Shown here: piece by piece, positions 36,791-56,960 of the stretch
How positions within the stretch are numbered: the stretch's first letter is position 1
How the letters are laid out: every line of letters begins with the position of its first letter
Source: Bacteroidota bacterium
GTDB taxonomy: Bacteria > Bacteroidota > Bacteroidia > NS11-12g > UBA9320
NCBI GenBank assembly: GCA_024679565.1
Contig: JAIBDD010000009.1
Span: 1,109 to 65,108 of the forward strand
Direction of reading: 5' to 3'
DNA: 64,000 bases
Notes under the pieces: generated by a model
Databases searched by the model: none
What the model saw: only the letters and a program-made list of their open reading frames with translations
What the model was told of the DNA's origin: nothing
Program-made: the position numbers and the translations under genes

Positions 36791-36797
36791 TTTAATC

Positions 36798-38027: not shown

Positions 38028-38029
38028 CT

Positions 38030-39058
38030 TTAGAGTTTTAAAGGTCCATCAGTCGTAAATATCATGTAATCCATTAGCGCTTGTGAGTAACCGCTTGACG
38101 GATTCGCCAAAAACAAACAAGAAATCATCTCAAGCTTGTCTGGGTTGTGAAGACCGTTCCCTTTTGGTGCAGTAGGTTGACCGTTTTCCAATGCTACCAT
38201 GTCAGAATATTTGATTGATACAATTTGCCATCCAGCATCTAGTCCTTTGAGCTCAACAGAGTACATATCTTCGTTCGCTTCATTGAAATTACCGTCGCCA
38301 TTCTCGTCTTCCTTAAATTGGAATAAAACCACACCGTTGGTAATTGTATCAGGCCTGTACAAGGCTACATTAAAGTAAGATTCATTTGGGTTACTGCTTA
38401 AGCCAAAACCATTCGGTCCTACAGATTTTGCTGGGAAATCTATAAGGCCTATCAACCAGTCCCAATTCACTGCACCCCCCATGTCAAAGTATCTACTGCC
38501 TTGAGGAACTGTTTTATCACTAGCTAGTTTAAAAGACATATTTGCGCCACTTTGAGCGAATATATTCCAGTCTGGATTGATGGCTTCAAAATCTGCCACT
38601 ACAGTACCATTAGGCACTCGTAAACCTGTGACATTTACATTTGCATTTTGTTTAGAACTATCGGCTTCAGTCCAAAGTTCAACAGTGCATGCTCCAGTGC
38701 CAAATGACGGAAAAATAGTTGTAGACCCATCCCATGTCCCATTCTCTTCGTTAATCAAATTCGATCTTCCTTCAATGATTTTAGTCGCATCAGACGTGCT
38801 ACTTTTTATGGTAATCGTCCATGAGGTAATTGTTGAAAACCGCGCTGAGAAGTATACGGTTTCGTTAGCCGAAAAATCGACATCGTCTTGACTCGTCTTA
38901 AAATCTTCAAGAACCGTAAAATCTCCATATAAGTCAGTCAAATTTGGCCCTTCAGGCTCTGTCACTCTTTCGCAACCTACTGTAAATACCATCGTACCAA
39001 TTACTACAAACGCAGCAAATCGATTCATAATAGATGTTTTATTTAATATCATTTTCAT
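38030..39058 (-). CDS. Surface lipoprotein (SusE/F-like position in the operon)
   Basis: Lipobox FTVGCE, beta-rich, no enzymatic motif. Confidence 0.4.
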   Translation of the reverse strand: MKMILNKTSIMNRFAAFVVIGTMVFTVGCERVTEPEGPNLTDLYGDFTVLEDFKTSQDDVDFSANETVYFSARFSTITSWTITIKSSTSDATKIIEGRSNLINEENGTWDGSTTIFPSFGTGACTVELWTEADSSKQNANVNVTGLRVPNGTVVADFEAINPDWNIFAQSGANMSFKLASDKTVPQGSRYFDMGGAVNWDWLIGLIDFPAKSVGPNGFGLSSNPNESYFNVALYRPDTITNGVVLFQFKEDENGDGNFNEANEDMYSVELKGLDAGWQIVSIKYSDMVALENGQPTAPKGNGLHNPDKLEMISCLFLANPSSGYSQALMDYMIFTTDGPLKL

Positions 39059-40782: not shown

Positions 40783-42777
40783 TTAAAATGTTAATTTAAG
40801 TTCTACAACTGTCTCAGTACCGTTGAACGCATCGCGTTCAAAATTGCGATCTTCATAATGGAACCATCTGTGACGTAAAAATAAAGCGGTGTTTTTAGAC
40901 AAATCATAGTCTATTCCTAGGCCTGCTCCCCAGCCTCTTTGATTTCGTGGGGCATTTGTAATCGCATCCAAATCCGTTTGATAATTGGCTACAATACTTT
41001 CGTAACCCAAGTACGTTGCGATAACGCATCGATCATTATATTCATAGTACGTTTCTAACTCATTGCTATAATGTCTTAGGTAGGCATCTTCCGAAAAAAC
41101 GGTAATAGGTGAAATGAAATCCTGAACCGAACTATATCTATTTAACAAGAATGCGTAGAATCGTTTTAGGCCAATTTTGCCAGAATATTTGGCCTGGACT
41201 TCCATTACGTTAAACTTCTTAGCCACAAAAGTGTCGGACAGTTCAACGATTTCATATACATCTCGGAAAATCACATTATATCTACCATAAGCACCAACAT
41301 TTGTCGGGAAATTCCATCTCCAAAAGCGAGATCGCGTTAGTTGATTAACAGGGTGTCCGTAGCTTATTTGATTACTAAGTCCTTTCAATTCTGAAGATAT
41401 GCCATTGGCAACTGAAAGCTTGAGTTTTTTCATCGGGAATTCAGCATTGATGTTGACCCCTTGTCGATTGTTGGTAAACTGACCAATTGCTGTGAGTGCA
41501 CTCGCAAAAGGAGCCAATACTTGACTTGACCCTACCGTACCTGCGGCTAGCGTATTGTTACTAGCCTCACGGATTGCGGAGTTAAAGAATATAGCATTGT
41601 TGTTTATAACGTTAGGGCTAACTCTAAAGAAATGTAATTCTAAAGGCACCTTACTGATTTTTTCGGTGAAATTCAACTTAAGGTTTATGGCTTCACCAAA
41701 TGGAAGACTATGCACCGGACTGTAATACTGACCTGCACCGATTTCTGATTTCAGAATAATTCCTTTCGATACATTCGCTTGAAACTGTATGGTTGATATA
41801 TCAAATCCAATGCTGTTCGTTCCAAGACTATCGCTATAGGTTTGATTATGGAACGTGTTAAACGCAACAAATCCAAAAGGCGTTTCCTTTTTTAACTGCC
41901 CCCCGTAAGACAAATTAGGAATGGTAAGAAAACCACCATTTAGTTCTGTTTTACCGTACAAGGCTTTTAAACTCAAATTACCTGGAAGATTTGAAGCTTC
42001 CACAATAGTTCCAGTAAATGCCCGCTCTCCCCAACGTGTATCTTGGTTAATATTTCCTTGATTATAGAAGCTACTATATCTGTCAGACACATTGCCTGTA
42101 ACAGGATCCCAAGGATTCCGTTCAAACAACATAAAACGATTGTAACCTGTAAAGCCTGCCAAAGTAAAATCACTCAACGATACCCAATGAATACCACCAG
42201 TTTTTACACCGAACGTGCCTATATCTGTATCAAAGTTTCCATATAGATTGATACCAAGAAGCAAACCTAAGTTTGTGCCAAAACGCGTACCTGTTAGTGG
42301 ACTATATATCGTTGGCAAATTGGTTTGACTTACTTGCCCTTGTCCATAGGTTTGGTTGATTTTACCATCCAAAAATTGAAAAGCATATAAATCGAAACCC
42401 CAAGCAGTTTTTGCCGAAGGTCTTCCAGAAAAATTTAATGTGAGATTTGGCAATTGACTATCGTCACCAACAAAAACACTTTTTTGAAGCGCTGTGTCGT
42501 TGTTTACTTCGTTTAAGATCAACGCGTCCTTATGTCGCGTATACGTGCTAAAAAATCGATACGTCCCACCAATTTTGAAAGTGTATAGTGCGTCTGCGGG
42601 CTTCTTAGGATAAACTCCAACCTTGGGTTTTATCGTAGAATCGAACCGGGTGTTCCAGTGGGCTTGCCAACGCTTAAACGAATCTAACTCCTGATTATCA
42701 GGAGGAGCCTGACCCGAACTGGATTGCCATCCAATCAGACAACAGATGATTGTAACTATTCTTTTTGAATTCATCAT
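40783..42777 (-). CDS. Uncharacterised outer-membrane beta-barrel protein (664 aa)
   Basis: Signal peptide, C-terminal ...VVELKLTF. Adjacent to the 570-aa barrel with 0-bp spacing, and overlaps the upstream symporter by 4 bp. Confidence 0.5.
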   Translation of the reverse strand: MMNSKRIVTIICCLIGWQSSSGQAPPDNQELDSFKRWQAHWNTRFDSTIKPKVGVYPKKPADALYTFKIGGTYRFFSTYTRHKDALILNEVNNDTALQKSVFVGDDSQLPNLTLNFSGRPSAKTAWGFDLYAFQFLDGKINQTYGQGQVSQTNLPTIYSPLTGTRFGTNLGLLLGINLYGNFDTDIGTFGVKTGGIHWVSLSDFTLAGFTGYNRFMLFERNPWDPVTGNVSDRYSSFYNQGNINQDTRWGERAFTGTIVEASNLPGNLSLKALYGKTELNGGFLTIPNLSYGGQLKKETPFGFVAFNTFHNQTYSDSLGTNSIGFDISTIQFQANVSKGIILKSEIGAGQYYSPVHSLPFGEAINLKLNFTEKISKVPLELHFFRVSPNVINNNAIFFNSAIREASNNTLAAGTVGSSQVLAPFASALTAIGQFTNNRQGVNINAEFPMKKLKLSVANGISSELKGLSNQISYGHPVNQLTRSRFWRWNFPTNVGAYGRYNVIFRDVYEIVELSDTFVAKKFNVMEVQAKYSGKIGLKRFYAFLLNRYSSVQDFISPITVFSEDAYLRHYSNELETYYEYNDRCVIATYLGYESIVANYQTDLDAITNAPRNQRGWGAGLGIDYDLSKNTALFLRHRWFHYEDRNFERDAFNGTETVVELKLTF

Positions 42778-44411
42778 TTAAATAAATACCATAAAATGAA
42801 AACTGAGATTATTAATAAAAGTGACAGAATAATATTGACACTTGATTTTTGAATTGTAATGGCGCCTTTAGACCATGTTATGTCTGCGAGACGGGATTCT
42901 GAAAGTGCGTCTTTCTCTTTCGAGAACACATACAGCAACGCCACACAAACCAGAAAAAGGAATAAAGCAAAGTGTAAAAAGTTTATTTGCGTGAAGGCAT
43001 ATAAGGGCCCGCTTAAATCGTCTTGAACTAGTTCTAACCCAAGTCTAACTAATCCTAAAACTGCACCACTTAACAAGGATATTTTAGCAGCTTGAGGCGT
43101 TATTTTCTTACTCAAAATACCAATTAAGAAAACAGCAGCAATTGGTGGTGATATATATGCTTGAATACTTTGAAGCACCTTAAATAAGCCTCCTTTAATA
43201 TCTTCCATAAAAGGAATCCACGCCATACCCAATAAAATGAGAACGACGGTAGCAATCTGACCTACGTACACAAGTTGTTTTTTGGTGGCCTCAGGTTTGT
43301 ATTGACGGTAAATGTCCATTGTAAACAACGTAGAACATGAATTAAAAACAGAAGACAATGAACTCATGAGAGCGGCCAGTAAGCCAGCAATAACAAGGCC
43401 TTTAAAACCCGCCGGCAAAACTGTTAGGCTAAGCAGCGGTAATGCGGCATCGTAGTTTGTGGTGCCGTCTGCTTTCAATGGAAACGTAATGAGCGCATTG
43501 TCGCCAACCGAAAGGGCTAGTGCGATAACACCCGGGATTACAAACAAAAACAGCGGTAAAAGCTTCAAGAAACCACCAAAAATGGTTCCTTTCCTAGCGT
43601 GATCAATATTTTTTGCAGCCAATACACGTTGAACGATAAATTGGTCCGTACACCAATACCATACTCCTAAAATTGGAGCGCCAAAGACTATACCTGTCCA
43701 AGGATAGTCTGGATGTTGCATGTTTTTCCATAGGCTAAGCGAACCTTCAGGAACGTTTTGCACTACACCTTCCCATCCATTTAAAGATTTTAAACCAAAA
43801 TAGGTTAGGGCAATAGAGCCACCTATAAGCACTATCATTTGCAGAAAGTCGGTATACACAACCACTTTTAACCCACCTATTAGCGTATACACACCGGTGA
43901 ATACAACAATTAACAAAGCACCAGTCCAGAAGTTGATTCCGAGTAATGTGGTAAATACGATACCTCCTGCGGCAATGGTTATAGATATTTTGGTTAAGAC
44001 ATACGCCACTATGGAAATCCAGCTTAGATAATTTCTGGCCCAAGAACTGTACCTTCTTTCTAAAAATTCAGGCATAGTAAATACACCACTTTTCATATAA
44101 AAAGGAACAAAGAACCAACCCAATACCAGCAGCATAAGTGCAGCGAGTATTTCGAACTGACCTGCGGCAAACTCTCCTTTTGCCCCGGCACCAGCCAATC
44201 CAATTAAATGTTCAGAGCCAATATTTGATGCAAACAGTGAAGCGCCAATCACCCACCAACCTAAATTTCTTCCACCCAAGAAGTACGACTCTGGACTTCT
44301 TTTGCGTTTAGAACATTTCTTCTTCAAAAAGAAAAACAAAGCAATACCAAATACGCATAAGAAATATACTCCTATAACGACTAAATCCAGCGATGCTAAG
44401 TGCTCAAACAT
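42774..44411 (-). CDS. Sodium:solute symporter family (SSF) sugar transporter
   Basis: 545 aa, ~14 TM helices, typical SGLT/SSF glycine-rich core. Confidence 0.85.
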   Translation of the reverse strand: MFEHLASLDLVVIGVYFLCVFGIALFFFLKKKCSKRKRSPESYFLGGRNLGWWVIGASLFASNIGSEHLIGLAGAGAKGEFAAGQFEILAALMLLVLGWFFVPFYMKSGVFTMPEFLERRYSSWARNYLSWISIVAYVLTKISITIAAGGIVFTTLLGINFWTGALLIVVFTGVYTLIGGLKVVVYTDFLQMIVLIGGSIALTYFGLKSLNGWEGVVQNVPEGSLSLWKNMQHPDYPWTGIVFGAPILGVWYWCTDQFIVQRVLAAKNIDHARKGTIFGGFLKLLPLFLFVIPGVIALALSVGDNALITFPLKADGTTNYDAALPLLSLTVLPAGFKGLVIAGLLAALMSSLSSVFNSCSTLFTMDIYRQYKPEATKKQLVYVGQIATVVLILLGMAWIPFMEDIKGGLFKVLQSIQAYISPPIAAVFLIGILSKKITPQAAKISLLSGAVLGLVRLGLELVQDDLSGPLYAFTQINFLHFALFLFLVCVALLYVFSKEKDALSESRLADITWSKGAITIQKSSVNIILSLLLIISVFILWYLFK

Positions 44412-44415
44412 CTTC

Positions 44416-45759
44416 CTAATATTCGAAATTCAGTTTACGTTTTTTCAACTTAATGGTAGTCGTCGCGTTAGGATCAGGTTTAACATAAAATGGAATATTG
44501 AAATACCCCATTTGTCCTTTACGATCGTAGGCAAATACAAAAACCCGGTACGCGCCTTCTTTTTGGGGAGCGACAAACTCCATTTTGTTTTTTTGCTTTG
44601 ATTTAATCAAACCTGGAATGCTCGGTGGTGCGCTTTCGACATCTCCACCTGCCTTTACGTCTGTACTTTCAGATATGACCTGCCAATCGATTTTAAGCTT
44701 GTCCCCATCTGGGTCGTTGAAGTTTGCTATTACCGTATAACGCCTACCCGATTCAACAATATTATCTGGTATAGGTTTACTATCGTAGAGTAACGCAAAA
44801 TCAACCACTTTGGGTGATTCATTTTTAGGTTTTTCGCCTCGCCAATCAATATGTAATCGATCGACCGATTCGGTACTTTCACCCGCAGCGCTAAACATAC
44901 CATACCAAGTTGCTGTAGTCTCCTGCTTTTGCCCCCATAAAAATACATAGGAACCAACACACTTTAAACTATCTGCATTGATGTAGTTATTTCGTTCTTC
45001 ATAGCTATCGGCTTTTTCACTAGACGTTTGTTCGATTGGGGCGCCCCACTTTGTTTTTGCCGTTTCCCAATGTCCATTAGGGCCCCACTCTGCAATTAGG
45101 TATGCTCCTGGCCAACCAAATCTATGCATGTCATCTACGGCTTTTTTCAAATCGCCATAGGTATTGACTCCATAGATATCAAGATCAGGTACGTTTTGTA
45201 ATATTAATGCTGTTTCGGTAGAATCATATCCGGCAGTTACCGTTGTTGTTGGATGATTTGGGTCGATACGGTGCACCATGGCACAGATATCCTGAACCGC
45301 ATTCCAAACCTTCGTATTACTGTAAAATAAATCTACTTCATTACCAACACCCCACATAAGCAAAGCTGGATGGTCTTTGAACTCTTTTACTTTTCTAGTA
45401 AAATACTCCAACTGTTTGCGTACAGCAGTTGTGTCGTTGTAGTCGAAACCATGTCGTTCGTGCTGAACCCACAAACCCATCATTACTGTCAAACCACGTT
45501 CGTGTGCCGCATCTAAAAATTTCTTGGCATTTTCTAAACTCCAAGTACGAATGGAATTGCTACCAATTTCAACCGCCTTGTCGAGATAGACTTGCCCCCC
45601 TACTCCTTTAATGTAATAAGGTTTTCCATCACGATAGAGTTCCCAGTCTCCATTGACTTTTTTTACTTCTACTTTTACAGCTTGCGCATTTGAATTGACG
45701 TATAACACAAACGCCAACACACTCATTAGTATAGCTTTATAGTTCAAAACTGATTTCAT
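44416..45759 (-). CDS. Secreted clan GH-A (TIM-barrel) glycoside hydrolase with C-terminal beta-sandwich. Possibly GH158-like endo-beta-1,3-glucanase
   Basis: Signal peptide from M28 (start 45759). LLMWGVGNEVD block with the clan GH-A acid/base Glu context. IAEWGPNGHWE as nucleophile-region candidate. ~100-aa Ig-like C-terminal domain. The family call is a guess from memory. Confidence 0.5.
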   Translation of the reverse strand: MKSVLNYKAILMSVLAFVLYVNSNAQAVKVEVKKVNGDWELYRDGKPYYIKGVGGQVYLDKAVEIGSNSIRTWSLENAKKFLDAAHERGLTVMMGLWVQHERHGFDYNDTTAVRKQLEYFTRKVKEFKDHPALLMWGVGNEVDLFYSNTKVWNAVQDICAMVHRIDPNHPTTTVTAGYDSTETALILQNVPDLDIYGVNTYGDLKKAVDDMHRFGWPGAYLIAEWGPNGHWETAKTKWGAPIEQTSSEKADSYEERNNYINADSLKCVGSYVFLWGQKQETTATWYGMFSAAGESTESVDRLHIDWRGEKPKNESPKVVDFALLYDSKPIPDNIVESGRRYTVIANFNDPDGDKLKIDWQVISESTDVKAGGDVESAPPSIPGLIKSKQKNKMEFVAPQKEGAYRVFVFAYDRKGQMGYFNIPFYVKPDPNATTTIKLKKRKLNFEY

Positions 45760-46468
45760 TTTTCTTTCTTGCATCGTAACGTTCTTTGTCAAAATTGAAT
45801 AGTTTGGCTGGTCGGTGTGCGACATTTGATTCAACCTCATTTAAAGGCGTAACCAAATCCATACTTAAGATCTTCTTTCTGAAGTTTGGTTTGTCAAATC
45901 TCATATTTAGGAGTGCCTCGTATACACCTTGCAATTCAAGCAAAGTGAATTTTTCGGGTAAAAGTTCAAATCCGATAGGCTCGGTACGCACTTTTTTCCG
46001 AAGATTGGCTAATGCCTTTTGAAGGATTTCCTCGTGGTCAAAACCCAAGGGGGGAAGTTCATTGATATCGAACCATTTCACCTCTTTTGCCCAAGTGGAC
46101 GCCACAGGCTTATGATTATCAGTTCGAACAAGTGAGTAATAACCTACTGTTATAACTCGGCCAACAGGGTGTCTATCAACACGACCGAAGGTGTGAAATT
46201 GTTCAAAGTATATATTCTCGAGTCCAGTAAGATGTTGTAAAATTCTATCGGCTGAGGAGTCTAAATCTTCTTCGGGATACACCAAATCACCAGGTATGGC
46301 CCAATTGTCTAAATACGGTTCTGCCCCCCTTTGGATTAATAGAACGCGTAATGATTTGTCTTTATAACCGAATATGACACAATCCGTTGACATACCAAAA
46401 TGAAGGAAATCTGAAAAAGGTAAATTGTTTTCGGAGAGGAAATATATATCTGGGTTTTTCTTGTGCAT
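45737..46468 (-). CDS. NUDIX-domain transcriptional regulator (NrtR-like: NUDIX plus C-terminal winged helix)
   Basis: NUDIX fold signature region (LLIQRGAEPYLDNWAIPGDLVYPEEDLDSSADRILQ), then a ~100-aa C-terminal domain. Start moved to ATG 46468 (MHKKNPD); the track TTG start is 46489. Confidence 0.6.
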   Translation of the reverse strand: MHKKNPDIYFLSENNLPFSDFLHFGMSTDCVIFGYKDKSLRVLLIQRGAEPYLDNWAIPGDLVYPEEDLDSSADRILQHLTGLENIYFEQFHTFGRVDRHPVGRVITVGYYSLVRTDNHKPVASTWAKEVKWFDINELPPLGFDHEEILQKALANLRKKVRTEPIGFELLPEKFTLLELQGVYEALLNMRFDKPNFRKKILSMDLVTPLNEVESNVAHRPAKLFNFDKERYDARKKNEISFEL

Positions 46469-46489
46469 TTTCAATAAGGATATGCACAA
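46461..46489. promoter_or_regulatory. Perfect 8-bp inverted repeat TTGTGCAT-N13-ATGCACAA overlapping the NUDIX regulator start. Candidate operator in the divergent control region
   Basis: 46461-46468 TTGTGCAT and 46482-46489 ATGCACAA are exact reverse complements. The regulator's ATG (rc of 46466-46468) lies within the left half. Confidence 0.5.
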
Positions 46490-46599
46490 ACATATAAAAA
46501 AAAACTTATAGTACTTTTTACTTTAAGAAAATTACGCTTATTTCGACTCTAAATGAAAATGAGATTATTTTCATGCGTTGATTATTTAATAATAGATAT

Positions 46600-48165
46600 A
46601 TGAAAACAAAAAATCCAGTTATTATGATGATCGCCATGATTGTAGCCCTAGGGGGGTTACTCATGGGATTCGACGCCTCGGTAATATCAGGGGTTATAAA
46701 ATTTATTGAGCCTGAGTTTGGTTTAACGAAACTGCAATTGGGATGGTCGGTAGCTTCATTAACGGTTACAGCAACCCTTGCCATGCTTGTGGCCGGGCCA
46801 TTAAGTGACAAAATTGGTCGAAGAACGGTGTTGCGATACGCGGCAATATTATATGCCGTGTCTGCATTTGCATCGGCTTTTGCACCCACGTATACATTTT
46901 TGGTAATTGCACGAATGATTGGTGGATTCGGCGTAGGGGCCTCATTAATTTTGGCACCAATGTACATCGCAGAAATGGCTCCACCTGAAATAAGAGGCCG
47001 GTTGGTATCGTTCAACCAGCTTAACATTGTAATAGGTATTTCACTGGCTTTCTTTACCAACTACCTCATTCTTCAACTCGGTAAAAGTGACGCTTCATGG
47101 GTTGCTTCTCTTAAAATTAATGAGAACAATTGGCGGTGGATGCTTGGTTTAGAAACCGTTCCTGCGATTTTATATTTCTCCGGTTTGTTTTTCGTACCTA
47201 ACAGTCCTAGGTGGCTTATTCTAAAAGGTCGATATGACGAGGCCAAAAAGGTTCTTAGTAAATTCTCAGGACCTGAAGAATCAGAAAAGACGGTACAGGA
47301 AATTCAAGACCACATCGAACAAGATAAAAACAAAGCCAAGGTTAGTATTGGAGAGCTCTTTAAACCGGCAATGAGATTCGTATTGGTCATTGGTGTTGTG
47401 GTAGCCGTATTACAACAAATCACGGGTATTAACTCCGTATTTTTCTACGCACCAATGATTTTTGAACAGTCGGGTATTGGCACTGACGCGTCATTTATTC
47501 AAGCCATTTTAGTAGGGATAACCAACCTCTTGTTTACCATTTTAGCTTTAGCCTTGATAGATAGACTTGGACGTAAGCCACTACTCAGTATTGGAGTAGC
47601 CGGAATGACGATATGTCTGTTCCTGTTGTCTTACGGGTTTAATTCGGCATCCTATACCTTACCTGCAGATTCTATTTCAGGATTGGTAGACAATGTTGAC
47701 TTATCGGGTTTGGAAGCTATCGCTGGTAAAACGTATGAATCTGACATTGCGTTTAATGAAGCCTTGTCGTCGTCTTTAGAAGTAGACGTATTAGCCGCAC
47801 ATAAATCGGAAATTATTAAAGCAGCGATTCAAATGAATCCTAAATTAATTTTAGTTGGCATTTTAGGGTTTGTAGCTTCTTTCGCCATTTCGATTGGGCC
47901 AGTGATGTGGGTCCTGTTTTCAGAACTGTTTCCAAATCGAATCAGAGGAATTGCCATATCATTTGTAGGCGTAATCAACTCTGCCATAAGCTTTGTGGTT
48001 CAATGGGTATTCCCATGGCAATTAGAAGTACTGGGTAACGCAGGAACATTTTTTATCTATGGCGTATTTGCCCTTATTGGCCTCATATTTATTATACGTG
48101 TAATTCCAGAAACCAAAGGGAAGTCATTAGAGGAGTTGGAAGAAGAACTTGTTAAAACCGCTTAA
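46600..48165 (+). CDS. MFS sugar porter family transporter
   Basis: GRR/GRK loops, PNSPRWL and PETKG sugar-porter signatures, 12 TM helices with a large central loop. Confidence 0.9.
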   Translation: MKTKNPVIMMIAMIVALGGLLMGFDASVISGVIKFIEPEFGLTKLQLGWSVASLTVTATLAMLVAGPLSDKIGRRTVLRYAAILYAVSAFASAFAPTYTFLVIARMIGGFGVGASLILAPMYIAEMAPPEIRGRLVSFNQLNIVIGISLAFFTNYLILQLGKSDASWVASLKINENNWRWMLGLETVPAILYFSGLFFVPNSPRWLILKGRYDEAKKVLSKFSGPEESEKTVQEIQDHIEQDKNKAKVSIGELFKPAMRFVLVIGVVVAVLQQITGINSVFFYAPMIFEQSGIGTDASFIQAILVGITNLLFTILALALIDRLGRKPLLSIGVAGMTICLFLLSYGFNSASYTLPADSISGLVDNVDLSGLEAIAGKTYESDIAFNEALSSSLEVDVLAAHKSEIIKAAIQMNPKLILVGILGFVASFAISIGPVMWVLFSELFPNRIRGIAISFVGVINSAISFVVQWVFPWQLEVLGNAGTFFIYGVFALIGLIFIIRVIPETKGKSLEELEEELVKTA

Positions 48166-48169
48166 ATCT

Positions 48170-49432
48170 ATGCATCAGAAGTTACTATTTTTGAAGCTGA
48201 ACGTCTTGCTGAGCGGTAAGTTCACCGCCCTTGTATTGATGTGTTCTCTCGTTGGTTGTAAACAGGAAGCCAATGAAGTTGAGACTGATCTTATCCAAGT
48301 CGAAAACTATACAACAGGTACCGACCATGTTCAAAAGACCGAAACGTATGTTCGTATTCCTGCTGATAACCACATTACCATCAACGTTGACGTTCCTGCT
48401 ACTGGGCGTTATCAAGTGGAAGTTTTTGGATCGTCCGATAATGGTACAATCTGGATTGAAGACTATATCAACAATACAGATGACCGGACTTACAACATCA
48501 CGGGAGACATCAAATTTGCACACAACAATTCCTTTCATTCTTCAAGCATGTTTGGCTCACCTCTATCGGAAGGAAGTCACCCATTTAAAATCCATGCTAA
48601 AAACGATACCGTAAATATTGACTGGATAAAACTTACCCCGATACTTGTGCATGATTCGACCTACGAAGTGTTGGAACAAAAAATGCAGGGTAGTCAATGG
48701 GACTTGGTATGGTCAGACGAGTTTGATGTAAACGGCTTACCTGACACGTCAAAATGGTCTTACAACATCGGAAACTGGGGATGGGGCAACAACGAGTTAC
48801 AGTATTACACCGCCTTTGACGAGAAAACAGCGCGCGTAGAAGACGGCAATCTTATTATTCAAGCACATCAAGACAAGAGTGATTCTACTTGGACCTCAGC
48901 AAGATTGACAACCCAAGGTAAATTCGGCTTCAAATATGGTAAGATAGAATTTAGGGCTAAGGTACCGCACGATCGTGGAACATGGGCTGCTGGTTGGCTG
49001 CTTGGATCAAATTACAAGGACGAAATATCTTGGCCATACTGCGGAGAAATAGATGTTCTTGAATGCGTTGGATATGAAATTAACGACACCACATTCGCTG
49101 GATTAAACCATGCTACCTGCCATACAAGAAAGTATTATTTCAAACAGGGCAATCAAATAGGAAGTGATACGACGTTAACCCACATGACAGATTCCTTTCA
49201 TACTTATGCAGTTGAATGGCATCCAGATGTTATCTATGGGTTGGTGGATGGAAAGCGTTATTACACCTATGACAAAAATGCCGACGACTTAGAATGGCCC
49301 TTTAACAAACCACAAGACATTATACTCAACCTTGCCATTGGAGGCGGATGGGGCGGAGCAAAAGGACTTGACCCTAATATGGACGCTCCTCAATACATTT
49401 TAGACTATGTGCGGGTGTACGACCTCAAATAA
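48170..49432 (+). CDS. GH16 family beta-glucanase (laminarinase-like) lipoprotein with N-terminal accessory domain
   Basis: Lipobox LVGCKQ. Catalytic motif EIDVLE (ExDxxE) at CGEIDVLECVG. ~170-aa N-terminal non-catalytic beta domain. Start moved to ATG 48170. Confidence 0.85.
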   Translation: MHQKLLFLKLNVLLSGKFTALVLMCSLVGCKQEANEVETDLIQVENYTTGTDHVQKTETYVRIPADNHITINVDVPATGRYQVEVFGSSDNGTIWIEDYINNTDDRTYNITGDIKFAHNNSFHSSSMFGSPLSEGSHPFKIHAKNDTVNIDWIKLTPILVHDSTYEVLEQKMQGSQWDLVWSDEFDVNGLPDTSKWSYNIGNWGWGNNELQYYTAFDEKTARVEDGNLIIQAHQDKSDSTWTSARLTTQGKFGFKYGKIEFRAKVPHDRGTWAAGWLLGSNYKDEISWPYCGEIDVLECVGYEINDTTFAGLNHATCHTRKYYFKQGNQIGSDTTLTHMTDSFHTYAVEWHPDVIYGLVDGKRYYTYDKNADDLEWPFNKPQDIILNLAIGGGWGGAKGLDPNMDAPQYILDYVRVYDLK

Positions 49433-49440
49433 CTTCTAGT

Positions 49441-50940
49441 ATGACAAAGCTTACACCGTATGCGTTATGTTTTATGACCTTATTTGTTTTGGTCGGTTGC
49501 GGCCAAAAAACTATAGAAGAATTGAATGTTAGCATTTTTCAAACCAGTGCTGCTGGTGATCATTTAAAACAAATTGAACTACCCACCACAGAAGCTGCTG
49601 TTTCTGGTGAGATCGTTATCAATACAAATGAAACATTCCAAACTGTTACCGGTTTTGGTGGAGCGTTTACAGAATCTAGTGCCACTTTGCTCAACCAATT
49701 AAGCGCTGATAAACGCAACCAAATTATGGAGGCGTATTTTTCAGCAGACGGGGCACAATACAGTTTGACTCGAACGCATATGAATAGTTGCGACTTCTCT
49801 GTTGGTCATTACAGTTATGCTCCAGTTGAAGGAGATACGGCTCTTGAATCGTTTAGCATTGCAGAAGATACGGCTGATATAATTCCGATGATAAAACAAG
49901 CACAAGCATTGTCGTCAGAAGGGTTTAAGATTGTTGCCTCTCCGTGGACGGCACCCATCTGGATGAAAGACAACAAAACGTGGAACGGCGGAAAGTTAGA
50001 AAAAAAATACTACGGCACTTGGGCAAAATTCTTTTCGAAATATGCACAAGCATATAGCGATGAAGGAATTAATATTTGGGCATTTACAGTAGAAAATGAA
50101 CCCTTGGGTAATGATGCCAATTGGGAAAGCATGCACTACACCCCTCAAGAAACTGCGGATTTTGTAAAACACCATCTAGGACCACAGTTGCAACAAGATA
50201 ACATTGACGCCAAAATATTGGTGTACGACCAAAACCGCGGAAAAGAATTAGATGAATGGGCATTGGCATTACTAACCGACTCGGCTTTAGCACCTTACAT
50301 TTACGGCACAGCGGTACATTGGTATACAAGTACGATTGATTGGTATCCGCAATCACTAACGTCCACACATAACCTTGCTCCCACCAAACATATTATACAT
50401 ACTGAAGGTTGTATTGATGCTGAAGTACCTCACTGGAAAGATGATGCCTGGTATTGGAGTAAAGAAGCAACAGACTGGGGTTGGGATTGGGCCAAAGAAG
50501 AAGACAAAAAAGACCACCCGAAATATGTGCCATGTTATAGATACGCCAGAGATATCATTGGCTGTATGAATAACTGGGTGGAAGGTTGGATAGATTGGAA
50601 CATGGTTCTTGATAAAAATGGAGGCCCTAACTTAGCTAACAATTGGTGTATAGCACCAGTCATTGTTGACACTGATAGTAACGAAGTTTATATCACACCG
50701 TTGTACTATGTTCTCAGTCATTTTAGTAAATTTATTCGACCTGATGCTATAAGAACAGGCATAGACACAAAACATGATGCGCTGATGGCAACCGCTGTAA
50801 AGAATAAAGATGGATCTAACGTAGTAATCGTTTTTAACGAATCTGATAAACCGATACACTACAAGCTAACCATTGATAATAAAGAAAAAACAATATTGAT
50901 TGACCAACAAGCGATACAAACTATCGTTGTAAGTCAGTAA
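49441..50940 (+). CDS. GH30 family glycoside hydrolase (beta-1,6-glucanase / glucosylceramidase-like) lipoprotein
   Basis: Lipobox LVGCGQ and TGFGGAFTESSA, the hallmark GH30 N-terminal motif. Confidence 0.8.
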   Translation: MTKLTPYALCFMTLFVLVGCGQKTIEELNVSIFQTSAAGDHLKQIELPTTEAAVSGEIVINTNETFQTVTGFGGAFTESSATLLNQLSADKRNQIMEAYFSADGAQYSLTRTHMNSCDFSVGHYSYAPVEGDTALESFSIAEDTADIIPMIKQAQALSSEGFKIVASPWTAPIWMKDNKTWNGGKLEKKYYGTWAKFFSKYAQAYSDEGINIWAFTVENEPLGNDANWESMHYTPQETADFVKHHLGPQLQQDNIDAKILVYDQNRGKELDEWALALLTDSALAPYIYGTAVHWYTSTIDWYPQSLTSTHNLAPTKHIIHTEGCIDAEVPHWKDDAWYWSKEATDWGWDWAKEEDKKDHPKYVPCYRYARDIIGCMNNWVEGWIDWNMVLDKNGGPNLANNWCIAPVIVDTDSNEVYITPLYYVLSHFSKFIRPDAIRTGIDTKHDALMATAVKNKDGSNVVIVFNESDKPIHYKLTIDNKEKTILIDQQAIQTIVVSQ

Positions 50941-50977: not shown

Positions 50978-53900
50978 ATGTCTAATCAAGAGTCGACTGG
51001 AGAATACGTCAAAATAGACGGTGAACAGTTTTATAAAATTTCAAATAGCGATTCGATTCGTCCGTTTTTCATGACCATCGTAAGCCCTAGCGACCATTGG
51101 TTGTTTATTGCTAGTAATGGTGGCATCACTGCAGGTAGAAAAAATGCAGGGTCGTCCTTATTCCCGTATTACACTGACGACAAAATAATTGACCTTGCCG
51201 ATATCACGGGGAGTAAAACTATCGTTCGTTTCGATGATAAGAATAAAAGATTCTGGGAACCATTCTCGGAGCGTAATGTAGGAGAAAACATTGCACGAAA
51301 TCTGTACAAAAACCGAATTGGCAACAAGGTGATTTTTGAAGAAATTCACCATACACATGGCTTGTCTTTTCAATATATGTGGACGTTTTCAGAAAAATTT
51401 GGCTTCGTTAAACGTGCAAGCATAAAAAACACAGGCGATACTCCAATGCCGTTCGAAATACTGGATGGCTTACAAAACGTTCTCCCTTATGGTGTCGATA
51501 CAGATTTACAAGCTTCGCGAAGCACATTGGTTGATGCGTACAAGAAGTGTGAGTTAGACAATGCCAGTGGCATGGGTATCTACTCCTTAAGTGCGATGAT
51601 TGTAGATAGGGCTGAGCCAAGTGAGTCGTTGTCTTGCACAACGATTTGGTCAACCGGTTTGAACCGGGAAAAAACTTTATTGTCGTCAACCCAACTGAAG
51701 TCTTTTAGACTCGGCAATACAATTAAACATGAACACGATGTTCGTGCTGAAAAGGGTGCTTACTTTTTGTCTGCCAAATTAGCGCTGGCGGCTAACGAAG
51801 AAACCACGTGGTTTACCATATGTGAGGTGAATCAAAATCATGCAGACGCTATCAATTTGAAAGCCCAAATTGTAAATGAAAGTTCACTAGTTCATGAATT
51901 AACTGAAGACATTGCCAATACTACAACAGATCTTAAGAAATTGGTGGCCAAGGCCGACGGTCTTCAAAAAACCAACGATGACTTAAGTACTGGAAGGCAT
52001 TTTTCTAATGTTTTATTCAACATCATGCGCGGTGGCATATTTGACGACCAATATTGCATTTATCGGTCTGATTATGAGCCACACATTGCCTCAATGAATA
52101 AGAACGTGTATGAAAACAATATAGCGTTCTTTCAAAACCTTGATGACGAACTAGAGCTTAAGTCTTTCATACAACTTGTATCAGACCAGGGTGATATTGA
52201 TTTATTGAGATTGACAAATGAATATTTACCCCTGTTTTTCAGTCGTCGACACGGGGACCCAAGCCGACCTTGGAACTATTTTTCCATCGAAACTCAAAAC
52301 AATGAAGGTGAAAAAATCAGAAATTACGAAGGCAACTGGCGTGATATTTTTCAAAATTGGGAAGGTTTAGCATTAACTTTTCCAGACTACACATTTGGCT
52401 TTATTAGTAAATTTTTAAATGCCTCTACCATTGATGGTTACAATCCGTATCGGGTATTTAAGGAAGGTTTAGACTGGGAAGTAGCGGATGAACATGACCC
52501 TTGGTCTTACATCGGTTACTGGGGTGATCATCAGATCATATACCTAACCAAATTATTGGAGATTTGTGAAGCACACTTCCCTAATTTACTGTCAGACATG
52601 CTTACTACGGAGTTATTCGTTTATGCGAATGTGCCTTATCGAATTAAGGAGTTTGATGCTATAGTATCAAACCCGCGCGATACAATTGTTTACGACTATG
52701 CTGCAGAACAAAAAATAGCTGAAAAAGTTAAGGAAATTGGTGCTGATGGAAAACTAGCCTTACACCGAGATAATACTCCTGTACGTGCAAGTATGACTGA
52801 AAAATTAATGGTCGCGCTATGTACAAAACTATATAACTTTATACCTGATGCAGGTATTTGGCTCAATACACAACGACCCGAATGGAATGATGCGAATAAT
52901 GCCTTAGTTGGTAATGGAGTATCAATGGTTACCTTGTATTATTTACGTAGGTTCATCGCATTCACACAGCAAATTATTGACGCAGACAAGCAACCGACTA
53001 CTGTTATTAACAGACCTGTCGCCCGTTTAATTCAATCGTTAAAATCTACCTACGAAGAGAATATACCGACATTACATAAAGGATTTACAGATTCTGAACG
53101 TTATGACTTTACGGCGTCTATTGGTGAAATAGGTGAATACTTCCGACGACAGGCTTACGCTGGGTTTAGAGCAGAAAAAGAAACAATAAACACCGCTGAT
53201 ATTTCAGAACTATTGGCAGTTGCTTTACAATATATAGATGCTACCATTGCCAAAAATAAAAGGGATGATGCACTGTATCATGCCTACAACGTAGTTGACT
53301 TTAAAAACAAGTCTGTTGGTATTGACCATCTTTACGAGATGCTGGAAGGACAGGTTGCCGTGCTAAGTGCAGGTACCATTGAGCCACAAGAAGCCAGTGA
53401 CATTTTAGATGCACTTAAGGCTAGTAAGATGTTTCGTGAAGACCAGTATAGCTATCTATTGTATCCAGACCGTCAATTGCCGTTTTTTATTGACAAAAAC
53501 ACCATACCCAAAACTGCGGCAGCAAACATTGCCTTATTTCAACAACTTCAGTCGGATTCGAACACGTCACTTATCCTTTTAGATGACTGCGGCGATTATC
53601 ATTTTAATGGAGACATTAATAATGCGAACGACGTTATTGACGTATTAAGGAATCTATCTGCTGAAGGGTATTCTGACCTCGTAAATGAAAACAGACAAGA
53701 GATTTTAACCGTTTTTGAAGATCTATTTGACCACAAATCTTTTACTGGTCGATCAGGAACATTTTATGGATATGAAGGACTAGGCTCCATTTACTGGCAC
53801 ATGGTGTCAAAACTATTACTCGCTGTTCAAGAAAACATTATTTCAGCATACCACAAAGGCGCGTCTGATCAGATTCTTGGTAACCTAGTAGAGCACTATT

Positions 53901-54394
53901 ATGAAATACGCGCTGGCATTGGGGTTAACAAATCACCTCAATTGTACGGTGCTTTCCCTACAGACGCCTATTCGCACACGCCAGGAAATGCTGGAGCACA
54001 ACAACCTGGCATGACTGGGCAAGTTAAAGAGGACTTAATCAATCGATGGGCTGAATTTGGTTTGGTGATTCGAAGTGGTACAATTTGTTTTGAACCTCTG
54101 CTTCTTAGAAGCGTCGAATTCTTTAAAGAATCGAGTACGTTTGATTTTTACGACCTCAACGACAAACCAGCAAGCATTGAATTGCCCGCAGACGCTTTAG
54201 CCTTTACCTATTGCCAAATCCCTGTAGTTTATCAAAATAGCGATGCAGAAAGCATTACAGTAACGTTTAATGATAATCGAACGGAAGTAATCCTTGGTCA
54301 CGAAATGCCTACCGATCTATCAAACAAGGTGTTTTCTCGTAAAGGAGATATCATCTCCATTCATTTCAACTGCATCAATCTACTAGTGAAGTAG
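50978..54394 (+). CDS. Large cytoplasmic (signal-less) conserved protein, 1138 aa. Candidate GH149/GH161-type beta-1,3-glucan (laminarioligosaccharide) phosphorylase
   Basis: No signal peptide. Size and position, last gene of the MFS-GH16-GH30 operon, match the bacterial GH149 context described for laminarin loci. No catalytic motif was verified. Confidence 0.4.
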   Translation: MSNQESTGEYVKIDGEQFYKISNSDSIRPFFMTIVSPSDHWLFIASNGGITAGRKNAGSSLFPYYTDDKIIDLADITGSKTIVRFDDKNKRFWEPFSERNVGENIARNLYKNRIGNKVIFEEIHHTHGLSFQYMWTFSEKFGFVKRASIKNTGDTPMPFEILDGLQNVLPYGVDTDLQASRSTLVDAYKKCELDNASGMGIYSLSAMIVDRAEPSESLSCTTIWSTGLNREKTLLSSTQLKSFRLGNTIKHEHDVRAEKGAYFLSAKLALAANEETTWFTICEVNQNHADAINLKAQIVNESSLVHELTEDIANTTTDLKKLVAKADGLQKTNDDLSTGRHFSNVLFNIMRGGIFDDQYCIYRSDYEPHIASMNKNVYENNIAFFQNLDDELELKSFIQLVSDQGDIDLLRLTNEYLPLFFSRRHGDPSRPWNYFSIETQNNEGEKIRNYEGNWRDIFQNWEGLALTFPDYTFGFISKFLNASTIDGYNPYRVFKEGLDWEVADEHDPWSYIGYWGDHQIIYLTKLLEICEAHFPNLLSDMLTTELFVYANVPYRIKEFDAIVSNPRDTIVYDYAAEQKIAEKVKEIGADGKLALHRDNTPVRASMTEKLMVALCTKLYNFIPDAGIWLNTQRPEWNDANNALVGNGVSMVTLYYLRRFIAFTQQIIDADKQPTTVINRPVARLIQSLKSTYEENIPTLHKGFTDSERYDFTASIGEIGEYFRRQAYAGFRAEKETINTADISELLAVALQYIDATIAKNKRDDALYHAYNVVDFKNKSVGIDHLYEMLEGQVAVLSAGTIEPQEASDILDALKASKMFREDQYSYLLYPDRQLPFFIDKNTIPKTAAANIALFQQLQSDSNTSLILLDDCGDYHFNGDINNANDVIDVLRNLSAEGYSDLVNENRQEILTVFEDLFDHKSFTGRSGTFYGYEGLGSIYWHMVSKLLLAVQENIISAYHKGASDQILGNLVEHYYEIRAGIGVNKSPQLYGAFPTDAYSHTPGNAGAQQPGMTGQVKEDLINRWAEFGLVIRSGTICFEPLLLRSVEFFKESSTFDFYDLNDKPASIELPADALAFTYCQIPVVYQNSDAESITVTFNDNRTEVILGHEMPTDLSNKVFSRKGDIISIHFNCINLLVK

Positions 54395-54420: not shown

Positions 54421-54451
54421 TTAAAAAAGCCACTAAGTTTCCTTAGTGGCC
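54421..54451. terminator. Rho-independent terminator for the minus-strand T9SS gene
   Basis: Stem GCCACTAAG (54429-54437), loop TTTC, CTTAGTGGC (54442-54450). A6 at 54423-54428 gives the U-tract on the minus transcript. Confidence 0.55.
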
Positions 54452-54493
54452 CGTCTGAAAAGTTAAACCGTTCTAGGTTTTTTGTTAAGATTC

Positions 54494-55843
54494 TTAATTC
54501 TTAGCTGCTTTGAAGCTAATTGTATCGTTGTTTGTTTCTACAACAAATACGTATAAACCGTTTTCATAAGTACTCATGTCAACAGTAACTTGAGTAGTAG
54601 TTGCGTCAATATGTGCAACAACCTGTCCTAAACTGTTTGAAACTGTAATGTTATTAATCGTTGCATTCGCATTGATGTTAATCACGTCGGTAACAGGGTT
54701 AGGATAGTAAGAAAGAGTAGTTGAAGCTATGTCTTTTACAGATGAATTGTCTGGCTCACCAAACATCATATCATCCCAGTAGTAAGTCTTTTCTCCAGCA
54801 GTAGCACCATCAACTCCAAAGTTGAAAAACAAAGAAGCTTTGCTGTATGTATTCATTAAATCTAATGCAGCAGTACCATCAGCATGTTTTGAAAAGTCAA
54901 ATACAACGTCTTCCCATGCATTCGCCTTAGTTGTTTTTGTATCTGTCTCACAAGATTTAGTTGGATCACCAGCATCTTCTACTTTTAAACGAACTGTAAT
55001 GTCTGCATCTGGGCTATAAACCTTAACAGTCATTTTAGTTTGTGTAGTAGTAAATGGTATAGCATCTTTAAATCCGAATGGAGTTCCAGCAGTAACACCT
55101 GCCCAAGTAGGGCTGCTTGCCACTTTTTTAGACATGGCAACCATATTCGTTCCACCTGCAGGATCTGCAACGATGGTAGATACCATATCCCCGAAATCAG
55201 TTAATGTGTAATCAACCATAGTATCTTCGAAAGTTACAGGTAAGTTGATTTGATTTTTAGTAGGACCAGAAGTCATAAATTCAACATTGTCCCAGTAGTA
55301 AGTTTTTGCACCTGCAGTAGGACCGTCAACATTATAGTTGAAGAAAACAGAACCTTTGTTATACGTCTTGTTTAAATCCAATAATGCAGTACCGTCTGCT
55401 TGTTTCGAAAAGTCGAAAACCAATACTTCCCACTCATTCGCTTTTGTAGTTTTAGCTTCTGTCTCTACAGATTTAGTAGGATCAGAAGCATCTTCTACTT
55501 TAAAACGTACTGTGATTCCTGCATCAGGAGACATTACTTTGATACTCATTTTAGTATCAGTATTGGTAAAAGGTAGTTTTTTCGAAAAACTTGTCACTGT
55601 ACCAGAAACATCTACTCCGATAGTAGTTCCTGCCCAGCCTTGAGCTGCAGCAGTCTTTTCCGACTTAACAATCGTATTGTTTGCATCGTTAGGGTCTACC
55701 ATAATTGTTGAAGCGTTTCCTCCGAAGTCTACAACTCCATAAGTTACAGCACCATCGTCCCAAGTTAGGGGTAAGTCATATCCTTGTGCAAAGCTTAAAG
55801 TAGCTGCTAGCATCAAGAACGAAAACGTAAAATTCTTAATCAT
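54494..55843 (-). CDS. T9SS-sorted surface protein with two tandem ~172-aa homologous domains (candidate glycan-binding protein)
   Basis: Signal peptide from MIKNFTFSFLMLAATLSFAQG. Two repeated domains. C-terminal Por_Secre_tail-like YPNPVTDVININ... Confidence 0.6.
   Translation of the reverse strand: MIKNFTFSFLMLAATLSFAQGYDLPLTWDDGAVTYGVVDFGGNASTIMVDPNDANNTIVKSEKTAAAQGWAGTTIGVDVSGTVTSFSKKLPFTNTDTKMSIKVMSPDAGITVRFKVEDASDPTKSVETEAKTTKANEWEVLVFDFSKQADGTALLDLNKTYNKGSVFFNYNVDGPTAGAKTYYWDNVEFMTSGPTKNQINLPVTFEDTMVDYTLTDFGDMVSTIVADPAGGTNMVAMSKKVASSPTWAGVTAGTPFGFKDAIPFTTTQTKMTVKVYSPDADITVRLKVEDAGDPTKSCETDTKTTKANAWEDVVFDFSKHADGTAALDLMNTYSKASLFFNFGVDGATAGEKTYYWDDMMFGEPDNSSVKDIASTTLSYYPNPVTDVININANATINNITVSNSLGQVVAHIDATTTQVTVDMSTYENGLYVFVVETNNDTISFKAAKN
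54739..55783. repeat. Internal tandem duplication, about 2 x 520 bp, encoding the two homologous domains of the T9SS protein
   Basis: Antisense ORFs 54822-55019 and 55338-55643 have near-identical translations (MKNKEALLYVFIKSNAAVPSACFEKS vs MKKTEPLLYVLFKSNNAVPSACFEKS). This implies ~516-bp periodicity with roughly 60-65% protein identity between domains. Confidence 0.7.
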
Positions 55844-56105
55844 AATTCTTTTTTTTATTTTCTTTTTTGTCTTTAAAAATTGATCACAACACATGCAATC
55901 GATTATTTGATGGTACGAATTAAATAAAACTTAAGGTAAATATTACTATAACTTATGGTATTTATTACAATAAACTTATAATTGAAGTATAGAAATAAGC
56001 GAATGAATTGGCTTGAATGATTGTTATTCATACTTTTGAAGCCTGCAAACGCGGAAAAAGTTTAAGCATTATTTGTTGTATCAATAGAGCAGTGAGATAA
56101 GATTT

Positions 56106-56960
56106 ATGAAATTAATAGCAGATAGCGGTTCAACTAAGTGCGATTGGATGATAGTTGGCGAACATGGAAATAAAATTGCCAAAACGATGGGTTTTAACCC
56201 GTTTTTCCATACACAAGAATTCATAGAAACTCAACTACAAGACAACGCTGAATTAATGTCGGTTAAATCGGCTATCAAAGAAATATATTATTACGGTGCT
56301 GGCTGCAGTAGCTCAGATCGGAATCAAATCATCAGAACAGCCTTGTCTGAAATATTTACAAACGCATCAGTTGTTCACGTTGCAGAAGATTTAGATGGTG
56401 CGGCGTATGCTGCTTCTGGACATAATCCAGGCATTGTTTGTATTATAGGTACTGGATCTAACTCGTGTTATTTCGACGGCAAACAAGTACACAGTAGAAT
56501 TCCAGCGCTTGGTTATGTTTTGGGAGATGAAGCGAGTGGTGCGTACTTTGGTAAAATAATGGTGTCAAACTATCTATACAACTTGATGCCTTCTAAACTT
56601 GCTGTCAAATTTTTCGACACGTACAAGGAAGACAAAGAGTCTATTTTGCACGCCACATACAATAAACCCAATGCAAACGTATACCTAGCGTCGTTCATGA
56701 AATTTGCTTCGGCGAATAGGAATGAGCCGTGGATCAAACAAATGATTTACGATGGGATAAAAACCTTTGCTGAGATTCACATTACGAGTCATCCAGAGTA
56801 CAAAACAGTACCCGTAAACTTTGTTGGCTCTATCGCCTATTATTTCCAAGATCAGCTTGACAAAGTGGCTAATGAGATGGGATTTAAAGTGGGCACCATT
56901 GTTAAAAAACCAATTGAAGCCCTTGTCGACTACCATGCTACCACCAATGTTGAGGTGTAG
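56106..56960 (+). CDS. BadF/BadG/BcrA/BcrD-type ATPase (N-acetylglucosamine kinase / glucokinase-like sugar kinase)
   Basis: MKLIADSGSTKCDW N-terminal phosphate-1 motif and ASKHA fold pattern. Confidence 0.65.
   Translation: MKLIADSGSTKCDWMIVGEHGNKIAKTMGFNPFFHTQEFIETQLQDNAELMSVKSAIKEIYYYGAGCSSSDRNQIIRTALSEIFTNASVVHVAEDLDGAAYAASGHNPGIVCIIGTGSNSCYFDGKQVHSRIPALGYVLGDEASGAYFGKIMVSNYLYNLMPSKLAVKFFDTYKEDKESILHATYNKPNANVYLASFMKFASANRNEPWIKQMIYDGIKTFAEIHITSHPEYKTVPVNFVGSIAYYFQDQLDKVANEMGFKVGTIVKKPIEALVDYHATTNVEV

Follow-up and report, generated by a model that had tools for sequence, protein, structure and literature searches.

Background

The closest described relatives of the gene considered here are the glycoside hydrolase family 149 (GH149) enzymes Pro_7066 and EgP1, which in vitro phosphorolyse Glc-beta-1,3-Glc linkages only and, in the reverse direction, accept glucose through laminarihexaose (PMC5827456). 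Pro_7066 degrades laminaritriose fully to glucose, while GH161 enzymes halt at the disaccharide, and in synthesis Pro_7066 also takes disaccharides with beta linkages of other regiochemistry as acceptors (PMC6484121). Bacteroidetes GH149 genes map to polysaccharide utilization loci (PULs) or carbohydrate-active enzyme (CAZyme) clusters together with GH16/GH17 and GH3/GH30_1 (PMC5827456). Later studies treat GH149 as marking the laminarin PULs of Formosa, Polaribacter, Aurantivirga, Prosiliicoccus, and Muricauda (PMC6246565, PMC10108472, PMC13188888), where the published role of GH30 is the removal of beta-1,6 branches. In this study, a gene was analyzed from a 64,000-nucleotide stretch of a Bacteroidota bacterium genome (contig JAIBDD010000009.1, positions 1,109 to 65,108; hereafter the window). 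Its product is, with high confidence, a cytoplasmic, inverting GH149 phosphorylase (clan GH-Q, 1,3-beta-D-glucan phosphorylase) serving the last step of a laminarin pathway.

Family assignment of the GH149 protein

The gene is an open reading frame (ORF) of 1138 codons running from ATG to stop at 50978..54394 (+), with exactly the coordinates given in an earlier note on this DNA, which had suggested a beta-1,3-glucan phosphorylase of GH149 or GH161 type located in the cytoplasm. The NCBIfam equivalog NF058639 'GH149_beta_1_3' (1,3-beta-D-glucan phosphorylase, GH149 family) matched the protein with 1618.3 bits against a cutoff of 1150, aligning its residues 3-1130 with positions 2-1131 of the 1134-position profile. 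The start codon is backed by the same alignment, in which profile position 2 falls on residue 3. In the phmmer search against the PDB, the top match was Pro_7066 (6HQ6/6HQ8) with 1258.7 bits and an E-value of 0, spanning query residues 7-1130 and chain residues 40-1167. The rebuilt alignment of the two proteins held 583 identical residues over 1122 aligned positions (52%) and 8 gap columns. The family is very large, with at least 8000 candidates returned by the homologue search. Among the matches listed, a small clade unites the window protein with relatives at 98, 87, and 68-66% identity, and most of the family stands apart at 57% or below.

The N-terminus of the protein (MSNQESTGEYVKIDGEQ..., MSNQESTGEYVKIDGEQFYK...) carries no hydrophobic segment. 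Its maximal Kyte-Doolittle value (window of 12) over the first 30 windows was 0.89, compared to 2.24 and 2.60 in the neighboring GH16 and GH30 proteins. Judged by this absent signal peptide, the GH149 product is cytoplasmic. The other products of the locus are membrane transporters, proteins with signal peptides or lipoprotein leaders, and a regulator of 218 residues, which bears out the description of this protein as the only large cytoplasmic one in the locus. The GC content of the gene (about 0.39-0.40) agrees with that of the remaining window.

Active-site residues and predicted structure

Functional residues and domain limits were taken from the structure paper of Pro_7066 (PMC6771811), the numbering of which equals SEQRES numbering minus 19, as verified at four independent motifs. 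In Pro_7066, the WND catalytic loop consists of W651/N652/D653, among which D653 is predicted to be the catalytic one, and further active-site residues are R470/D471 of the RD motif, E951, and the phosphate-site histidine H959. A surface oligosaccharide-binding site is formed by Y841 together with E990/Y993/E994 (PMC6771811). All residues named in that paper are identical in the window protein, including Y824 and E972/Y975/E976 of the surface site. Across 26 aligned homologues, the most distant at 51% identity, no variation occurred at the active-site residues or at Y975, and the entire block IWLNTQRPEWNDANNALVGNG, which contains W636-N637-D638, was likewise invariant. Dom1 and Dom2, the inserts that set GH149 apart from GH94, are both present with 2 and 1 gap columns, respectively. 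Divergence from Pro_7066 was greatest in the helical linker (11 of 38 positions identical), in Dom1 (19 of 61), and in the C-terminal jelly roll (38 of 103).

A single-chain AlphaFold2 model built on the homologue alignment reached a mean predicted local distance difference test (pLDDT) score of 81.3 and a predicted template modeling (TM) score of 0.80. Its N-terminal domain is all-beta and is followed by a long helical linker, a core rich in helices, and a beta domain at the C-terminus. The best Foldseek matches in the PDB were 6HQ8_A, 6HQ6_B, and 6HQ6_A with TM-scores of 0.94-0.95 at 51% identity, and the superposition on 6HQ8 at 0.95 spans 1141 columns. The predicted structure thus has the GH149 architecture: a beta-sandwich at the N-terminus, a helical linker, the (alpha/alpha)6 catalytic barrel, and a jelly roll at the C-terminus, together with Dom1 and Dom2. 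The barrel and the conserved catalytic aspartate, which the earlier note had suggested looking for, are both found in it.

The next structural matches were GH161 (TM 0.65), GH94 laminaribiose phosphorylase (0.57-0.60), and other GH94 enzymes (0.43-0.50), all at 8-15% identity. Membership in GH161 or GH94 could draw on these scores, on the GH161 structures found by phmmer in the PDB with about 70 bits in three short stretches, and on the WND and RD motifs, which are common to the whole clan (PMC6771811). However, in bits GH149 outscores GH161 about 18-fold and its match runs over the full length, and the GH149-specific Dom1 and Dom2 inserts are present. No GH94 chain was found among the PDB sequence matches at E <= 10, nor did Pfam return a GH94 domain match. 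GH161 was rejected on its fragmentary match and a TM-score of 0.65 at 15% identity, and GH94 on the lack of a sequence match and a TM-score of at most 0.60, with resemblance in fold only. Both families are only clan-level relatives of the protein, and its membership in either is extremely unlikely. Of the two families named in the earlier note, GH149 is therefore the one to which the protein belongs, as the equivalog profile, Pro_7066, the conserved residues, and the fold all agree.

Proposed reaction and pathway

By homology to Pro_7066 and EgP1, the GH149 enzyme would remove the non-reducing-end glucose from linear beta-1,3-gluco-oligosaccharides whose degree of polymerization (DP) is at least 2, at the expense of inorganic phosphate. 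This would yield alpha-D-glucose 1-phosphate and a chain shorter by one unit, ending in one free glucose per chain. D638 of the WND loop is the predicted general acid, while R455/D456, E933, and H941 would hold the glucosyl and phosphate groups, and Y824 with E972/Y975/E976 would form a remote surface oligosaccharide-binding site. In the proposed pathway, laminarin would be cut outside the cytoplasm by a lipoprotein GH16 (endo-beta-1,3), a lipoprotein GH30 (beta-1,6 debranching), and a secreted GH158. The short products would then cross the inner membrane, and GH149 would make glucose 1-phosphate from them. Each phosphorolysed bond spares the ATP of glucokinase, one per bond compared to hydrolysis.

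That the window enzyme performs beta-1,3-glucan phosphorolysis is suggested by its 52% identity to Pro_7066 and the full conservation of the sites. A GH149-fold enzyme with another substrate or reaction, acting on beta-1,6-branched or mixed-linkage chains, restricted to disaccharides, or working mainly in synthesis, would fit an identity of only 52% to the nearest characterized enzyme and the position of the protein in its small clade. It would also fit the acceptor kinetics, which already differ between EgP1 and Pro_7066 at 45% identity (PMC5827456), and the regiochemical tolerance of Pro_7066 in synthesis (PMC6484121). However, the donor-, phosphate-, and surface-site residues are all identical to those of Pro_7066, the equivalog score lies far over its cutoff, and the neighboring genes encode beta-1,3-glucan enzymes with no biosynthetic genes in the locus. 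A deviating reaction is very unlikely on this evidence.

Several points weigh against reading the protein as the final enzyme of a laminarin pathway. Only two GH149 enzymes underpin the family, and with the closest at 52% identity, chain-length or branch tolerance could differ; the activity of the window protein itself is deduced from homology. The Pfam scan of the protein returned 0 families, although Pfam holds no GH149 model and the result is hence uninformative rather than negative. Since Pfam finds nothing, the public record is probably unnamed for that reason: the identical sequence, seen on 20 contigs, is deposited as MCO4819103.1, 'MAG: hypothetical protein KC517_05730 [Bacteroidetes bacterium]'. 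The hairpin behind the gene (54427-54452) has its T-run on the minus-strand side and so conforms to a canonical terminator for the convergent gene alone. Pfam found no SusC or SusD among the ORFs scanned, and the 64-kb window holds no SusC-sized ORF. The delivery of oligosaccharides is the weak link, as the major facilitator superfamily (MFS) protein of the locus may import glucose, its nearest solved relatives carrying monosaccharides.

Gene order and conservation of the locus

The features of the locus are collected in Table 1. The GH149 gene follows genes for an MFS sugar porter, a GH16, and a GH30, with intergenic gaps of 4 (MFS/GH16), 8 (GH16/GH30), and 37 nt (GH30/GH149). It thus ends a tightly packed operon, and co-transcription is plausible from the spacing and the conserved gene order. 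The GH16 and GH30 proteins have lipoprotein signal peptides, both ending in ...LVGC (lipobox). While the mechanical GH16 ORF begins at TTG 48149, the likelier start is ATG 48170, because it is called on a 98%-identical contig and gives a proper lipoprotein leader. The GH16 catalytic domain is nearest to the Rhodothermus laminarinase 3ILN (214 bits, PDB), followed by many endo-beta-1,3-glucanases, and the nearest PDB relatives of the GH30 are GH30_1-type glucosylceramidases (257 bits). A terminator scan gave 12 matches in total against a shuffle expectation of 7.4 +/- 2.7, among which only the hairpin after GH149 was convincing. Matches in a scan for sigma-70-type promoters were below expectation, a consensus type that does not apply to Bacteroidota.

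Table 1. Coordinates of the GH149 gene, its domains and motifs, and the surrounding features, in positions of the window
Feature	Position	Strand	Basis or remark
GH149 beta-1,3-glucan phosphorylase gene (predicted activity)	50978..54394	+	1138 aa, without signal peptide
N-terminal beta-sandwich domain, residues ~7-287 (Pro_7066 1-303)	50996..51838	+	residue mapping; all-beta in model
Helix-rich region holding Dom1 and Dom2	51953..54058	+	Pro_7066 mapping, model, Foldseek
R455-D456, RD motif recognizing sugar 1-phosphate (Pro_7066 R470/D471)	52340..52345	+	invariant, 26 homologues
W636-N637-D638 catalytic loop; D638 predicted catalytic acid (Pro_7066 D653)	52883..52891	+	invariant
E933 ... H941 (Pro_7066 E951 and phosphate-site His H959)	53774..53800	+	both invariant
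C-terminal beta region	54059..54391	+	Pro_7066 mapping; model beta strands 1029-1132
Sugar-porter MFS, 521 aa, first operon gene	46600..48165	+	Pfam Sugar_tr 392 bits, TIGR00879 378 bits
GH16 lipoprotein, 420 aa from ATG, N-terminal extra domain and laminarinase-type catalytic domain 176-418	48170..49432	+	Pfam GH16
GH30 lipoprotein, 499 aa, GH30_1-like (glucosylceramidase / beta-1,6-glucosidase type)	49441..50940	+	Pfam GH30 255 bits and GH30C
Hairpin with 11-bp stem between GH149 stop and convergent gene, likely operon end	54427..54452		terminator scan
Nudix and winged-helix (NrtR/AraR-type) regulator, 218 aa	45737..46393	-	Pfam NrtR_WHD, AraR_C, NUDIX
GH158 (endo-beta-1,3-glucanase family), signal peptide, first enzyme of divergent operon	44416..45759	-	9ORO 312 bits
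Sodium:solute symporter (SSF), divergent operon	42774..44411	-	Pfam SSF 282 bits
664-aa signal-peptide protein	40783-42777	-	modeled beta-barrel
570-aa signal-peptide protein	39070-40782	-	relative labeled 'outer membrane beta-barrel protein'
Three small lipoproteins closing the divergent operon	35948-39058	-	342, 409, 290 aa

The proteins of the window were compared by tblastn with 80 GH149 loci (48-53% identity) of GTDB species representatives, most of which belong to the Flavobacteriales, Cyclobacteriaceae, and Saprospiraceae. A GH30 lay no more than 10 kb from GH149 in 55 of these loci, a GH16 in 52, the MFS type of the window in 20, and a GH158 in 11. The MFS-GH16-GH30-GH149 order was identical in L004, L012, and L057, and also in L084. 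The entire arrangement of the locus was repeated on contigs where GH149 is 98% identical (L001-L003) and where it is 57% identical (L084). With a laminarinase-type GH16, a GH30_1-type GH30, and a GH158, the locus is, by the families of its enzymes, directed at beta-1,3-glucan.

Immediately downstream of GH149, a convergent gene of 466 residues (54494-55894, -) carries a type IX secretion system (T9SS) C-terminal sorting domain and no other recognizable domain. It is followed by a BadF/BcrAD/NagK-like ATPase of 284 residues (56106-56960, +) with weak matches of 23-37 bits. In L001-L003 and L084, both genes are found at the same place. Glucose that remains once phosphorolysis is complete could be phosphorylated by the kinase-like protein.

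Transport across the two membranes

The main interest beside the gene itself lies in how oligosaccharides pass both membranes in a locus without SusC/D. Among solved structures, the MFS protein scored best against XylE (286 bits) and GlcP (243 bits), which are monosaccharide/H+ symporters. At the 11 sugar-site positions described in the XylE structure literature, the MFS protein keeps seven residues (Q168, Q288, Q289, N294, N325, G388, and W392) and is changed at four (F24M, Y298F, Q415N, and W416S). Compared to XylE, it has an insertion of about 68 residues at about 349-416. Its substrate could therefore exceed a monosaccharide in size.

An import of glucose by the MFS protein, with the GH149 substrate entering via another inner-membrane transporter or the SSF, would be compatible with the GH149 identity. 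The monosaccharide symporters as nearest characterized relatives, the seven retained sugar-site residues, and the occurrence of this MFS type within 10 kb in only 20 of the 80 GH149 loci speak for it. Against it stand the four differing pocket residues, of which W416S enlarges the pocket, and the insertion. Moreover, the MFS gene is the first of the GH149 operon, in an arrangement conserved down to 48% GH149 identity. A cytoplasmic phosphorylase acting on DP >= 2 requires an oligosaccharide importer, and an SGLT-type monosaccharide symporter already adjoins. Members of the sugar-porter family that carry cellodextrins are also known from fungi. Glucose import is a real possibility, though less likely than not. 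Of the pathway drawn in the earlier note, the extracellular beta-1,3-glucan cleavage genes (GH16 and GH30) and the intracellular phosphorylase stand, while laminarioligosaccharide import by the MFS protein stays conjectural.

The ORFs of more than 800 residues in the window encode only a Ddl-like protein, UvrA, a histidine kinase, ClpB, and GH149. The locus is what PMC5827456 terms a 'CAZyme cluster' and not a canonical PUL, unless a SusC/D pair lies beyond the window. The most unusual feature near the GH149 gene is a pair of unannotated, predicted outer-membrane beta-barrels in the GH158 operon, the 664-aa and 570-aa proteins. Both have signal peptides and a C-terminal Phe, and neither had a sequence match in Pfam, NCBIfam, or the PDB. 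The 664-aa protein was modeled as a large beta-barrel with about 22-24 strands (pLDDT 71.7), which matched only generic porins, Occ channels, AlgE, and barrels of TonB-dependent transporters with TM-scores of 0.2-0.44. For the 570-aa protein, one relative in UniRef is named 'outer membrane beta-barrel protein'. Each family has a few hundred members, mostly in metagenome-assembled genomes (MAGs) of Salibacteraceae, Schleiferiaceae, and Flavobacteriales, and the two genes are adjacent elsewhere by their locus tags (JJ975_12940/12945 and GC194_03160/03165). BLASTP gave no significant similarity between the two proteins that would indicate paralogy (E = 0.10), and a literature search for a porin-type laminarin uptake system beside GH158 found nothing relevant.

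The two proteins are candidate uptake channels for outer-membrane passage in a laminarin locus lacking SusC/D. A wider proposal is that Salibacteraceae, Schleiferiaceae, and similar MAGs, as small lineages of the Flavobacteriales, have a SusC/D-independent laminarin pathway, in which the two barrels would replace SusC/D and the MFS protein, with its altered, enlarged pocket and its insertion of about 68 residues, would carry laminaribiose or oligosaccharides instead of a monosaccharide and supply GH149 directly. This proposal is tentative and, as a whole, rather unlikely to hold.

Divergent operon and intergenic region

The gene at 44416-45759 matched the PDB structures 9ORO (312 bits) and BuGH158 6PAL (245 bits). 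An identity as GH2_C/apiosidase was rejected, as it was indicated by a weak Pfam match only and the PDB matches give GH158. Because this gene encodes a GH158, the divergent operon is a second beta-1,3-glucan module. Among the three small lipoproteins that close it, the 342-aa protein had no matches, the 409-aa protein a CBM9-like domain, and the 290-aa protein a sub-threshold GH16 match. Surface glycan binding or an accessory function in the locus is a possible role for the three. A Rhodothermales MAG (L061) also encodes the 342-aa and 570-aa proteins together in the vicinity of GH149 and GH158.

The Nudix-winged-helix protein between the two operons is the probable regulator of the locus, and its position is unchanged in L001 and L084. 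In the intergenic region between the regulator and MFS genes, a block of about 37 nt, AAAAAAACTTATAGTACTTTTTACTTTAAGAAAA (~46497-46533), is 100% identical in L084, where coding sequence is only about 57-70% identical. It holds an imperfect palindrome, CTTATAGTA-N5-TACTTTAAG (46505-46527), with 8 of 9 positions complementary. The block is a candidate operator or promoter of the divergent operons, to judge by its conservation. Two perfect 8-bp inverted repeats (46461-46489 and 46553-46574) were rejected as operators, being unconserved in L084, and the frequency of the second is about chance level.

Elsewhere in the window, an ORF of 891 residues (517-3192, -) has two D-Ala-D-Ala ligase N-terminal matches, four C-terminal-domain stretches, and ATP-grasp matches. 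Its product appears to be a tandem-fused double Ddl-like protein.

Comparison with known systems

The occurrence of GH149 in laminarin loci has been on record since 2018, and the finding is an ordinary one, the protein being a new, unannotated member of the family. Its gene lies in the customary setting of such enzymes, beside laminarin-degrading GH16 and GH30 genes in a Bacteroidota genome of marine type. Laminarin is among the largest marine carbon fluxes, and the window would add one more uncultured Bacteroidota lineage that finishes laminarin degradation by ATP-saving phosphorolysis. Among the relatives listed, nearly all of the thousands are unnamed or called 'hypothetical protein'. The practical gain lies in annotation, since the name 1,3-beta-D-glucan phosphorylase can be given to them and to MCO4819103.1 with high confidence.

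The locus resembles the laminarin PULs of marine Flavobacteriia (Formosa, Polaribacter, Aurantivirga, and Muricauda; PMC6246565, PMC10108472, PMC13188888) in its GH149, GH16_3, GH30_1, GH158, and MFS. While those PULs are defined by SusC/SusD and often contain GH17 and a LuxR/BguR-type regulator, the window locus lacks SusC/D and GH17, has a Nudix-winged-helix regulator, and carries two unannotated genes for predicted outer-membrane beta-barrels in place of SusC/D.

At the level of the enzyme, the GH94 laminaribiose phosphorylase PsLBP (PDB 6GGY/6GH3) shares clan GH-Q, the WND/RD/His machinery, and inverting phosphorolysis with the window protein. It differs in being a disaccharide-specific protein of about 900 residues without Dom1 and Dom2, with a TM-score of 0.60 at 11% identity. 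The GH161 enzymes (PapP and THA_1941; PDB 9GY9 and 9QQK) are alike in their clan-level fold, beta-1,3 linkage, cytoplasmic location, and placement in beta-glucan gene clusters. In contrast, they need DP >= 3, leave laminaribiose uncleaved, and are mainly Gram-positive enzymes accompanied by ABC transporters (PMC6484121).

Closer still is EgP1 of Euglena gracilis, the founding member of GH149, which has the family and the predicted reaction in common with the window protein (PMC5827456). It is, however, eukaryotic, prefers short acceptors, and is 45% identical to Pro_7066 according to the same paper. Pro_7066 (6HQ6/6HQ8; PMC5827456, PMC6771811) matches the window protein in length class, in a colinear alignment over residues 7-1130, and in the four-domain architecture with Dom1 and Dom2. 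The RD, WND, Glu, and His residues of the active site and the Y/E/Y/E set of the surface site are likewise shared. The two proteins differ at 48% of positions, and Pro_7066 comes from a proprietary metagenome (Bacteroidota), whereas the genomic context of the window protein is known.

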